Shown here in pieces: positions 24,833-28,168 of a DNA stretch of 64,000 nucleotides. Position 1 is the first letter of the stretch. Every line of letters begins with the position of its first letter. The stretch is from Escherichia phage FL18. Location: sequence record PP400780. One strand, written 5' to 3'. The notes under the pieces were generated by a model. The model saw nothing but the letters and a program-made list of their open reading frames with translations, was not told where the DNA came from and made no database searches. A program made the position numbers and the translations under genes.

Positions 24833-24884
24833 GTTTACTTCCTCCAAGGGTTTTGATACTATACATTCATCAACTACTTGGAGG
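24833..24884 (+). promoter_or_regulatory. PeSL (inverted repeat cctccaag/cttggagg around GATACTATA)
   Basis: seen in sequence. Confidence 0.5.
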
Positions 24885-24889
24885 AAATT

Positions 24890-24993
24890 ATGACCCGTCC
24901 GAAGCGTCCATTGCGATAAATCAAGCACGCTTAGATGAAAAAATTGCTCAACGTCCGACTTGGTACAAATACTTTGGTAAATCAATTTACTAA
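24890..24993 (+). pseudogene. denV: denV (endonuclease V) remnant: start codon plus frameshifted C-terminal about 31 codons
   Basis: ATG ACC CGT (MTR) then out-of-frame ...[30 protein letters not shown], matching recalled T4 EndoV C-terminus; about 100 internal codons absent. Confidence 0.6.
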
Positions 24994-25325: not shown

Positions 25326-25628
25326 ATGAAAACATATCAAGAATTTATTACTGAAGCGCGAGTGAGTGCAGGTAAATTAGAAGCCGCTATAAATAAAAAG
25401 GCCCATTCATTTCATGATTTGTCCGATAAAGACCGTAAGAAACTTGTAAGCCTTTATATTGACAAAGAGCGTATTCTCGCTCTTCCTGGCGCTAATGAAG
25501 GTAAACAGGCCAAGCCTTTGAATGCTGTCGAAAAGAAAATTGATAACTTTGCTTCTAAATTCGGTATGTCTATGGATGACCTTCAGCAAGCGGCTATCGA
25601 AGCAGCTAAAGTAATTAAAGGTAAATAA
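25326..25628 (+). CDS. internal-protein-like, CTS MKTYQEFITE
   Basis: 100 aa; SD AAGGA. Confidence 0.6.
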   Translation: MKTYQEFITEARVSAGKLEAAINKKAHSFHDLSDKDRKKLVSLYIDKERILALPGANEGKQAKPLNAVEKKIDNFASKFGMSMDDLQQAAIEAAKVIKGK

Positions 25629-25630
25629 CA

Positions 25631-25676
25631 GTTTACTTCTCCTAGAATTGTGATAGTATATTCATAATTCTAGGAG
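25631..25676 (+). promoter_or_regulatory. PeSL (11-bp inverted repeat ctcctagaatt/aattctaggag)
   Basis: GTTTAC then stem-loop containing GATAGTATA. Confidence 0.55.
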
Positions 25677-25739
25677 GGGTAAATACAGAAATGGACAATT
25701 CATGTGCCACGGAATGGCCCAACATAAAAGAGAAACTAA

Positions 25740-26279
25740 ATGAGAACATTTTTAACTGGACCTTATCTATCCCTGATGAATGCTTTTACACACCATTCTG
25801 ATGCTAGAGTAGAAGAAATTTGTAAGAACGGTTACGTCCCACCATTTGAAGACGTACTCAAGCAGTACTGTACACTTCGTTTAGACGGCGGCAGACAATC
25901 AGGTAAATCGACCGCAGTAACTAATTTTGCTGTTAATTGGCTGTATGATGGTGGAACAGTTATTGTTCTTTCTAATACTTCAGCTTATGCTAAAATTTCT
26001 GCTGGCAACATTAAAAAAGAATTTTCTCGTTATTCTAGCGATGATATTCGATTCCGTTTATTTACTGATTCTGTTCGTAGTTTTATTGGCAATGAAGGTT
26101 CTAAATTCCGTGGATTAACGCTTTCTCGTATTCTGTACATAATTGACGAGCCTATTAAAGCTCCTGATATGGATAAGATTTACAATGTCCATATTAAAAC
26201 AGCCCAACACTGTTGCAAAAGCAAATATTGCATCGGCGGTATTGCTCGTCCTCAATTTTTTGTGATTGGAATGCAATGA
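25740..26279 (+). CDS. small P-loop NTPase-like protein
   Basis: Walker A-like GGRQSGKST, Walker B-like ILYIIDEP; 179 aa. Confidence 0.45.
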   Translation: MRTFLTGPYLSLMNAFTHHSDARVEEICKNGYVPPFEDVLKQYCTLRLDGGRQSGKSTAVTNFAVNWLYDGGTVIVLSNTSAYAKISAGNIKKEFSRYSSDDIRFRLFTDSVRSFIGNEGSKFRGLTLSRILYIIDEPIKAPDMDKIYNVHIKTAQHCCKSKYCIGGIARPQFFVIGMQ

Positions 26280-26584
26280 TGACCACTATTGAAGTTTTTG
26301 AGTATTGTTATAACAGCCCAGTATGCAATAAAAGGGCTCTTGTAGAAAATTATGAGATTTACCATTTTAAACCTAAACGATATCGTTTGACTAAAGGACC
26401 GTTCGCAGGGCAGCAGGTTCTTTGTACTGCTCCTAATGCACGGTTGATGACTAGTATTCCGCATTTCAAAATGGAATTTATTGATGGGCCATTTAAGGGA
26501 TTAATCACTCAAAGTTTAATGGCGTTTAATTCCGACCCATTTTTGATTAAAGAAAAAACTTGGATAAATTTATTTTCTAATTGA
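26276..26584 (+). CDS. hypothetical protein
   Basis: ATGA overlap; about 102 aa. Confidence 0.4.
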   Translation: MMTTIEVFEYCYNSPVCNKRALVENYEIYHFKPKRYRLTKGPFAGQQVLCTAPNARLMTSIPHFKMEFIDGPFKGLITQSLMAFNSDPFLIKEKTWINLFSN

Positions 26585-26590
26585 GGTTAT

Positions 26591-26953
26591 ATGAAAGCAT
26601 ATCAAATTCTTGAAGGTGCACATAAAGGCACTATTTATTTTGAAGACGGTACTCAAGCCAGGATTATTGTCTCTAAGACTTTTAAAGAAGACTCTATTGT
26701 AGACCCGGAAATTTTCTACGGTTTGAAGGCCCGTGAAATTGAAATTGAACATCAACCTAAAGTTAAAATTGAAGGTGGTCAACATCTGAACGTTAACGTT
26801 CTGCGTCGTGAAACTCTTGAAGATGCAGTTAAGCATCCGGAAAAATATCCGCAGCTGACCATCCGTGTATCTGGTTATGCAGTTCGCTTTAACTCTCTGA
26901 CTCAGGAACAGCAGCGCGACGTTATCGCTCGTACCTTTACTGAGAGTCTATAA
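26591..26953 (+). CDS. autonomous glycyl radical cofactor (GrcA/YfiD-like)
   Basis: C-terminal about 64 aa nearly identical to recalled E. coli GrcA incl. glycyl-radical motif [13 protein letters not shown]; a T4 homologue (Y06I) is described in the literature. Confidence 0.8.
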
Positions 26954-27177
26954 TGGCTAAATTGATTATAGAAGGGTCTGAAGATGTTTTAAAATGTTTT
27001 GCCGCCTGGTTTAGTTGCTCAGGCGAGCAATCATTCACTGAAACATTTAGAATGGGTGATATTACTGGGAACTATCCGACAACTGATATCACTGTACGTG
27101 GATATGGTATTAATGAGCCTATCCAATTGGTCGAATATGACCTTGCCACTGATGAGGAAATTCCTTATGTCGATTGA
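26953..27177 (+). CDS. hypothetical protein
   Basis: 74 aa ORF, ATGA-type overlap. Confidence 0.4.
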   Translation: MAKLIIEGSEDVLKCFAAWFSCSGEQSFTETFRMGDITGNYPTTDITVRGYGINEPIQLVEYDLATDEEIPYVD

Positions 27178-27433
27178 AGACATCAAAGGCCACAAGCCGC
27201 ATACCAATGATAAAATTGGTAAAGTGAACGCTATTAAAGATGCTGAAGTCCGTCTTGGATTGTTGTTTGATGCTCTGATTGAAGAAGCATATATCTTGAA
27301 AGAAAATGAAACAGAGCAACAAACCAAAGAAGATATGGATGCAGTGCAGGCTCTTAAGTACGCTAAGCAACATCTAAAAGAAGCCAGCATGTGGGCATGT
27401 CGTGCAGTATTTCGACCTGAGGAAAAATACTAA
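27167..27433 (+). CDS. hypothetical protein
   Basis: 88 aa from internal ATG of ORF 26999..27433. Confidence 0.4.
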   Translation: MSIEDIKGHKPHTNDKIGKVNAIKDAEVRLGLLFDALIEEAYILKENETEQQTKEDMDAVQALKYAKQHLKEASMWACRAVFRPEEKY

Positions 27434-27648
27434 TGGCTTCTACTATTACTGGGTTATTGGACTTCCAAGAAAAGGTCAACAAAATTTGTAGTGAATACTT
27501 AAAGTATCTTGAAGAAGACCTTGAAGATTGTAAGGAAGAAGGCGAAGAAGACTATGCTGATCAGCGTCGACGCCAAATCGAAGAGATGAGGCGTTTCGCC
27601 AATATAGTATCTAAAGAATCTTGGGCTTTAACTCCATTTTATCAATAA
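27433..27648 (+). CDS. hypothetical acidic protein
   Basis: 71 aa. Confidence 0.4.
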   Translation: MASTITGLLDFQEKVNKICSEYLKYLEEDLEDCKEEGEEDYADQRRRQIEEMRRFANIVSKESWALTPFYQ

Positions 27649-27652
27649 AGTA

Positions 27653-27701
27653 GTTTACTTCTCCTCTAGTTGTGTTACTATAGACCTGTCAACTAGAGGA
27701 G
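27653..27701 (+). promoter_or_regulatory. PeSL (perfect 12-bp inverted repeat ctcctctagttg/caactagaggag)
   Basis: GTTTAC + TGTTACTATAG in loop; 3' arm supplies SD GAGGAG. Confidence 0.6.
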
Positions 27702-27709
27702 AAATCAAA

Positions 27710-28168
27710 ATGACTATCAATTCAGACGTTTTTATCCGCCGTAATAAACTCCGTCGAATCTTTGAAACGGAGTTCCGCAAAATAAATGCCGGTATAAAAG
27801 ATGCTGCAAAGTCTCTTGGACTACCAGGCTTTCATATCAAGTATTCTCAACATCTCTTAGATCGTGCCATCCAGAGAGAAATAGATGAGAATTACGTTTT
27901 TGAATTATTTCATAAAGTAAAAAATCATGTTAAAGAAGTTGCAGAATTTTTATCAATGCCGGCACGTCCAGATGTTGATGAAGATTTTGTCGAAGGTGTC
28001 GAATATCGCCCAGGCCGTTTAGAAATAACTGATGGAAATCTTTGGTTAGGACTTACAGTTTGTCGCGAAAATCCAGCATTCAAAATGAAGACTCTTCAAT
28101 GCAGAATGGCTATTATTAACAGTAAACGACTACCAGGAAAAGCTTCTAAAGCAGTGATTAAAATCTAG
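27710..28168 (+). CDS. hypothetical protein, possibly RegB endoribonuclease (position and size)
   Basis: 152 aa; location in tk-e interval; identity not verified. Confidence 0.35.
   Translation: MTINSDVFIRRNKLRRIFETEFRKINAGIKDAAKSLGLPGFHIKYSQHLLDRAIQREIDENYVFELFHKVKNHVKEVAEFLSMPARPDVDEDFVEGVEYRPGRLEITDGNLWLGLTVCRENPAFKMKTLQCRMAIINSKRLPGKASKAVIKI

Follow-up and report, generated by a model that had tools for sequence, protein, structure and literature searches.

The window analysed here, a 64-kb stretch of Escherichia phage FL18 (PP400780), carries a real gene for a GrcA-like protein, the stop codon of which overlaps the ATG of the following gene (TAATG; Table 1). Nucleotide identity of the gene region is 99.2 % to Escherichia phage JM17 and 92.3 % to T4 vs.6, and the protein shares 93 % of its amino acids with T4 Vs.6 (8 differences, both proteins having 120 residues) and matches PHROG 1209 over its full length (E = 8e-63). 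The order of the genes is kept relative to T4 (nudE-e-...-vs.8-vs.7-vs.6-vs.5-vs.4-vs.3-regB), with vs.6 lying between vs.7 and vs.5, upstream of regB. The window phage is a T-even phage of the Mosigvirus type and, judged by similarity and position, the gene is the ortholog of T4 vs.6 (Y06I). A scan for promoters and terminators in 25600-27800 gave nothing above shuffled expectation.

Table 1. Features of the vs.6 locus in the 64-kb window.
Feature	Position	Strand	Basis
vs.7 ortholog, upstream neighbour	26276..26584	+	tblastn with T4 vs.7 (63 % amino-acid identity); JM17 annotation; PHROG 2049
Shine-Dalgarno sequence GAGG	26583..26586	+	read from the sequence; 4 nt 5' of the ATG
vs.6-ortholog CDS, GrcA-like	26591..26953	+	ORF listing; ATG...TAA, 120 aa
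Phage-lineage N half, codons 1-59 and base 1 of codon 60	26591..26768	+	48 % nucleotide identity to E. coli grcA
Host-derived tract, end of codon 60 to codon 117 (EGGQHLNV...ARTFT)	26769..26941	+	breakpoint test, megablast
Gly95 codon in RVSGYAV, predicted glycyl-radical site	26873..26875	+	alignment to GrcA and PflB
Codon 105, CAG (Gln); host CCG (Pro)	26903..26905	+	alignment to E. coli GrcA/grcA
Phage-type 3' end GAG AGT CTA TAA, beyond the host-derived tract	26942..26953	+	codon comparison
vs.5 ortholog, downstream neighbour	26953..27177	+	ORF listing, gene order compared with T4, PHROG search

Several other observations concern the surroundings of the gene. An antisense reading frame of 88 amino acids (26570-26836, minus strand) overlaps vs.6; it is without support and presumably spurious. 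The ipII ortholog at 25326-25625 is 96 % identical to T4 ipII at the nucleotide level, with a dS of 0.085, while the genes around it are 64-84 % identical to their T4 counterparts, with dS from 0.8 to above 2; in sequence terms this looks like a recent phage-phage exchange. At 24865-24990 the window matches residues 96-137 only of T4 DenV, and JM17 is annotated with a 47-aa 'endonuclease' at the equivalent place, so denV may be a remnant in the window phage.

The family assignment of the protein is clear. The Pfam Gly_radical domain (PF01228) covers residues 59-101 (E = 4e-18), the best match among solved structures is E. coli YfiD/GrcA (PDB 6OWR, E = 1.4e-41), and the top NCBIfam family by far is the GrcA equivalog TIGR04365 (IPR011140), matched at profile positions 23-126 with 156 bits. 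This is below the curated cut-off of 170 bits, where E. coli GrcA scores 233.9 bits, because the N half of the phage protein has diverged. The RVSGYAV motif and two further blocks common with the C-terminus of PflB are all present, and Gly95 aligns with G102 of GrcA, the equivalent of G734 in PflB. Judged by these matches, the window protein is a GrcA-like, stand-alone glycyl-radical domain of ~14 kDa, that is, an autonomous glycyl-radical cofactor.

The numbers of the two glycines follow PMC8683613 and established knowledge. Among "spare part" proteins, experimental validation exists only for YfiD and T4 Y06I, which upon activation by PFL activase bring activity back to oxygen-cleaved pyruvate formate-lyase (PMC8683613, citing Wagner et al., 2001). 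The earlier note had mentioned a T4 homologue described as a spare glycyl-radical domain able to repair this enzyme, which agrees with Wagner et al. (2001) as cited in PMC8683613. By analogy with Y06I, the window protein would also rescue pyruvate formate-lyase. The host activase PflA, as shown for T4 Y06I, would place the radical on Gly95, and the radical protein would then dock onto pyruvate formate-lyase that oxygen has cut at its own radical glycine and restore its activity. Fermentative supply of acetyl-CoA and ATP could in this way be maintained during infection in low-oxygen habitats, which is the presumed physiological gain for the phage.

The N half and the host-like tract

The N-terminal half of the protein had been described in the earlier note as unrelated to GrcA, and this proved to be wrong. 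BLASTP aligns residues 22-120 of the window protein with residues 28-127 of E. coli GrcA, and the N half used alone still finds GrcA, with 35 % identity over 40 amino acids (E = 2e-6). Alignment in hhalign of 10 phage N halves with 11 bacterial GrcA N halves gives a probability of 96.9 % (E = 1.3e-10) and extends from end to end, phage positions 1-60 being matched with GrcA 2-67 in 60 aligned columns. Since the N half is homologous along its whole length, the whole gene is a GrcA homolog, and it is only the level of divergence that shifts abruptly within it. A fusion between a phage N-terminal domain unrelated to GrcA and a captured host C-terminal domain would agree with the low identity of this half to E. 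coli grcA (just 48 % of nucleotides and about 30-35 % of amino acids) and with the first ~20 residues, which BLASTP leaves unaligned, but in view of the BLASTP and profile-profile matches over the N half itself we consider such an origin highly improbable. The N half is 7 amino acids shorter than that of E. coli, its synonymous sites are saturated in comparison with grcA, its GC3 in the window is 0.25, and the region is kept among the Straboviridae copies.

The shift in divergence is sharp. In a codon alignment, the first 175 columns are 48 % identical to E. coli grcA and the last 182 columns 96.2 %, and the maximum chi-square breakpoint falls at 26768|26769 (chi-square 103.9, p < 0.0005; the highest value in 2,000 permutations was 19.2), with the megablast alignment to E. 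coli also beginning at 26769. Over the last ~185 nt, identity to grcA is 96.2 % in practically every one of 5,426 complete E. coli genomes. When the entire 64-kb window was used as the megablast query against these genomes, the tract was the sole match, with counts equal to those of a tract-only query, so that an identity to host grcA of 96.2 % in the tract stands against no match in the rest of the window. The 60-residue C-terminal string quoted in the earlier note is encoded exactly as given, and 59 of its 60 residues are identical to E. coli GrcA, with Q105 in place of proline. The breakpoint, the sole megablast match and the low synonymous divergence of the tract described below strongly support the recent recombination with host grcA that had been suggested from these letters.

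Codons 61 (GAA GGT GGT...) to 117 (ACT) comprise 171 nt, of which the window and E. coli disagree at 4, three of the differences being synonymous and the fourth giving P105Q. This is the sole amino-acid difference from E. coli GrcA in the tract and is unique to the window among twelve E. coli-type copies; JM17, which is 99 % identical to the window, retains CCG at codon 105. T4 differs from E. coli at one of the 171 nt (R73H) and two other phage copies at none. Nucleotide identity of the tract to E. coli grcA is 96-98 % in the window and 98-100 % for the 171-nt stretch in T4-type phages, and the window agrees with E. coli at all 21 sites that distinguish this species from K. pneumoniae. Beyond codon 117 the gene reads GAG AGT CTA, where E. 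coli has GAA AGC CTG. The same three codons are found in Slopekvirus Klebsiella phages, GAG AGT is common to most E. coli T-even copies and GAG AGT CTA to the Mosigvirus-type ones. As the last three codons are phage-type, as in the distant Slopekvirus, they define the right edge of the tract.

An assembly or contamination artefact, with host reads merged into a phage contig, has practically no chance of explaining this pattern, given that the junction is in frame, that it recurs in over 600 phage genomes sequenced independently, the T4 reference among them, and that the tract bears substitutions specific to phages and runs into a phage-type 3' end.

Matches to the tract are found at up to 21-22 places in at least one E. 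coli genome, with a median of 2-3 (grcA, pflB, tdcE). As a donor pflB was rejected: the E. coli-type tract of a near-identical copy (L097) is ~77 % identical to pflB and ~97 % to grcA.

Origin of the tract and direction of copying

Could such identity have been kept by selection alone? An ancient shared C-terminus, preserved without any recombination by purifying selection that acts on the protein, codon usage or an RNA element, is suggested by the near invariance of the C-terminal 60 amino acids across Enterobacterales and by the high expression of grcA. This reading is, however, already refuted by the synonymous sites. Tract dS is 0.00 between T4 and E. coli (0/43 synonymous sites changed) and 0.07 between the window and E. 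coli, as compared with 0.05 between E. coli and a cryptic Escherichia species or clade, 0.41 between E. coli and Citrobacter amalonaticus, 0.60 between E. coli and K. pneumoniae and 1.07 between E. coli and Salmonella. Since other genera lie at 0.41-1.07 from E. coli, change at synonymous sites is clearly tolerated, and constraint on protein or codons is no explanation. An Rfam scan of 26300-27200 found no known RNA family, which leaves an RNA constraint at the nucleotide level unsupported, and the phage tracts are polyphyletic, following the host. We hold a history of selection without recombination to be extremely improbable.

A neighbour-joining analysis of the tract in 35 bacterial and 25 phage sequences places E. 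coli, Escherichia sp. and all Tequatrovirus/Mosigvirus-type phage tracts in one clade with 99.2 % bootstrap support. The E. coli-like synonymous states of the tract are not ancestral in the distant phage copies.

Near-identity by itself gives no direction, and the 3' half of E. coli grcA might in principle have been converted from a phage copy. Yet the E. coli tract shows ordinary vertical divergence from other enterobacteria: it is normally placed in the enterobacterial gene tree, the dS of its N half is similar to that of the C-terminal tract, and the allele is fixed, being found in every one of the 5,426 E. coli genomes. In E. coli phages GC3 is 0.36-0.41 in the tract versus 0.19-0.25 in the N half, and the Klebsiella phages described below show the same excess of the tract over the N half. 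The vertical divergence of the E. coli tract and the GC3 of the phage tract, higher than that of the N half, both indicate that copying went from host to phage. The reverse direction can be given hardly any credence, and the analysis of grcA and vs.6 found no evidence of phage-to-host flow.

For T4-like myoviruses a clock of 1.3e-5 substitutions/site/year has been published (PMC6722890). The absolute date of ~10^2-10^3 years that would follow from it is not relied on here, because short-term rates overestimate long-term rates.

Phage lineages and the number of events

A second host species has left its own tract in related phages. In Jiaodavirus Klebsiella phages (KEN22, AM_K4, one IMG/VR contig and the 'Salmonella' phage PSE-D1 were compared) the N half is phage-type, with about 73-75 % nucleotide identity to the T4 and window N halves, while the tract has the K. 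pneumoniae state at 17-19 of the 21 sites diagnostic for K. pneumoniae versus E. coli. Tract identity to K. pneumoniae grcA is 94.9-99 %, one copy having a single difference in the first 52 codons, and GC3 is 0.56-0.61 in the tract versus 0.22 in the N half. These tracts end on the right near codon 112, as opposed to codon 117 in E. coli-type tracts. Identity to K. pneumoniae grcA reaches 95-99 % in 106 records of the phage database. That Jiaodavirus tracts are of K. pneumoniae type and end at another codon on the right indicates that host-to-phage copying happened at least twice and is probably recurrent. PSE-D1 (L182, 221-583) was isolated on Salmonella and has the K. pneumoniae state at 17/21 diagnostic sites. 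What its tract reflects may be the host in which the phage evolved and not the one used for isolation. A Salmonella-type tract was not found in the phage database, where the best identity to Salmonella grcA is 84 %.

All Straboviridae copies have phage-type N halves, which group by phage genus, while the type of the tract tracks the host. In Slopekvirus, Pseudotevenvirus, Karamvirus and oral-metagenome phages the tracts are 75-84 % identical to the closest sampled bacterial grcA, and in the search for their donors the best bacterial matches reached 77-84 %; on these identities they appear to be old, or else their donors are unsampled. Conversion is thus not universal or continuous across all lineages. 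Amino-acid signatures of the host group persist even here: LLDAVEH in Slopekvirus Klebsiella phages and NPDKYPQ...VITRT in the Pasteurellaceae-associated oral-metagenome phages.

A few copies deserve separate mention. IMG/VR phage contigs of ~150 kb (L115-L120, L127, L136-L137), whose ids suggest human-associated samples, have grcA-like genes with the Pasteurellaceae-type NPDKYPQ...VITRTFTESL, 79-84 % identical at the nucleotide level to the closest sampled bacterial grcA, mostly from Pasteurellaceae such as Haemophilus. T5-like Demerecviridae (L092, L094, L138-L165) have a grcA-like gene that also starts with MKAYQ, and its C-terminal segment is closer to E. coli pflB (72-77 % of nucleotides) than to grcA. 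In Krischvirus MIZ5 (L095, 364-777 and 826-1367) the core motifs are altered to GHHLNANV and RISGYATRF, and a gene for an HNH endonuclease lies directly downstream. Two database entries have labelling problems: PLSDB files a 5.37-Mb K. pneumoniae replicon (CP125156.1, L177) as 'plasmid unnamed2', and a contig labelled 'Vagococcus sp. WN89Y' (L034) bears an enterobacterial grcA.

Among the E. coli phages themselves, the host-like tract is not private to the window phage but common to hundreds of T-even phages, with 624 records in the phage database at least 95 % identical to E. coli grcA. Between the window and T4, dS is 0.455 in the N half of vs.6 and 0.073 in the tract (Fisher p = 0.004), the flanking genes ranging from 0.8 to above 2. 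Fixed differences between Tequatrovirus-type and Mosigvirus-type phages (nine copies) number 12 in nt 1-180 and 0 in nt 181-351 (p = 0.0004). Across twelve E. coli-phage copies, N halves differ by up to 14 % and tracts show 0-4 differences from E. coli, all of which belong to one of two clades and most to a single copy; the ancestral state of the tract in both clades is the E. coli sequence. The contrast in dS, together with the restriction of clade differences to the N half, indicates that the tract was homogenised after the phage lineages separated, and since the homogenised segment begins and ends where homology to the host gene does, independent conversion by that gene is more parsimonious than phage-phage spread.

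T4 and the window are ~90 % identical in a block at 26472-26950, which takes in the 3' end of vs.7 and all of vs.6, with flanks mostly at 40-73 %. As it spans vs.6, even the phage-type N half is less diverged than its surroundings.

One might instead propose a single host-to-phage event in one E. coli T-even ancestor or lineage, followed by phage-phage spread in which conversion by the host took no further part. Mosaicism is pronounced in T-even genomes, the block just described and the ipII ortholog being local examples, and the left edge is the same in all E. coli-type copies, at grcA nt 200. However, phage-phage exchange would normally bring flanking phage sequence along, whereas it is precisely the N half that holds the fixed clade differences and the tract that holds none, and the bounds of the homogenised segment are exactly those of host-gene homology. 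The E. coli sequence is ancestral in both clades, later differences being confined to one of them, and the separate Klebsiella event shows that the host-to-phage route has been used repeatedly. On balance we think a single event unlikely, and repeated conversion by host grcA remains our preferred reading.

Proposed history and comparison with known systems

We propose, with a probability of about 0.8, that an old acquisition of full-length grcA was followed by overwriting of its 3' tract with host grcA, in the direction from host to phage, in at least two independent and most likely recurrent events, and that the protein serves in rescue of pyruvate formate-lyase as T4 Y06I does. The ancestral straboviral gene would have been a complete grcA. 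With time its N half would have fallen to about 30-35 % identity with GrcA, too little for homologous recombination to act on, while the conserved C-terminal coding region would have remained sufficiently similar to host grcA to recombine with it by means of the phage machinery. Short stretches of homologous, cytosine-containing DNA present in a T4-infected cell are efficiently incorporated into progeny genomes by the recombination proteins of the phage (marker rescue, insertion/substitution). During infection, host sequence would be copied into the tract by homologous recombination (gene conversion), up to edges set by the limits of phage-host homology, and the flanks without homology, being unconvertible, would stay phage-type. 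Within Tevenvirinae the donors would have been Escherichia once and K. pneumoniae once, independently. Conversion is most likely recurrent because each round restores the near-identity that enables the next. The radical domain presented to host PflA and PflB would as a result be the host's own.

A stronger version of this proposal is that the 3' tract of vs.6 is a standing target for the chromosome of the current host, which would convert it again and again in the manner of marker rescue, the phage allele being continually reset and so keeping a record of recent host species, as in PSE-D1 with its K. pneumoniae tract; we rate this as somewhat better than an even chance. Phages of the T4 type break down the DNA of the host, and exchange between them and the chromosome is commonly assumed to be slight. 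Neither the gene nor its biochemical role is new, and the annotation is ordinary; the new element is the 171-nt stretch, identical to E. coli at 98-100 % in T4-type phages, with its sharp edges and its independent K. pneumoniae counterpart. That a strictly lytic phage recombined recently with the host chromosome is strongly supported by the breakpoint and synonymous-site comparisons, and it probably did so more than once. If recurrent, such exchange would allow recombination from host to lytic phage to be measured by simple experiments in the best-understood phage, it would keep an auxiliary protein matched to its host partners PflA and PflB without dependence on selection alone, and it would make the tract a sequence marker of the recent natural host of a phage. 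A standing target, if real, would be a clean and tractable case of ongoing gene flow from the chromosome to a virulent phage in the T4 model system. Literature on Y06I, vs.6 and GrcA with phage recombination yielded only biochemical citations and no mosaic; the T4 genome review (PMC150520) was outside this search and a prior mention is possible.

The closest characterised counterparts of the window protein are the two validated proteins. T4 Vs.6 (Y06I) is alike in length, in its position between vs.7 and vs.5, in mosaic structure and in the left edge, and its right edge is essentially the same, except that it carries the host-type GAA one codon further; it has one tract substitution relative to E. 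coli (R73H) where the window has four, including P105Q. E. coli GrcA (YfiD, 6OWR) is a full-length homolog and likewise a stand-alone Gly-radical domain, with 59/60 identity over the last 60 residues. The window protein differs from it in the shorter N half, only ~30-35 % identical, and in a score below the TIGR04365 cut-off, and its gene lies in an AT-rich lytic phage within an operon-like array of other vs genes.

As a process, copying of homologous DNA has a mechanistic precedent in T4 marker rescue, which, however, uses laboratory plasmids with phage DNA, whereas the donor for vs.6 would be a natural chromosomal gene. Host-phage intragenic recombination in cyanophage psbA/psbD was reportedly described by Zeidner in 2005. 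It has also been proposed for these genes by Sullivan (2006; PMC1484495). These genes and vs.6 are alike in being auxiliary metabolic genes of T4-like phages, mosaics of phage and host segments with patchy GC content and phylogenies that follow the host. With its supported breakpoint, host-like synonymous sites and incongruent segment histories, vs.6 is, by the same kind of sequence comparison, a mosaic of the psbA type. It differs from the cyanophage genes in that its donor tract is 98-100 % identical to one named host species, that its edges are sharp and reproducible, that two clearly separate donor species are involved, and that the carrier is a classical enterobacterial model phage which degrades the DNA of its host.
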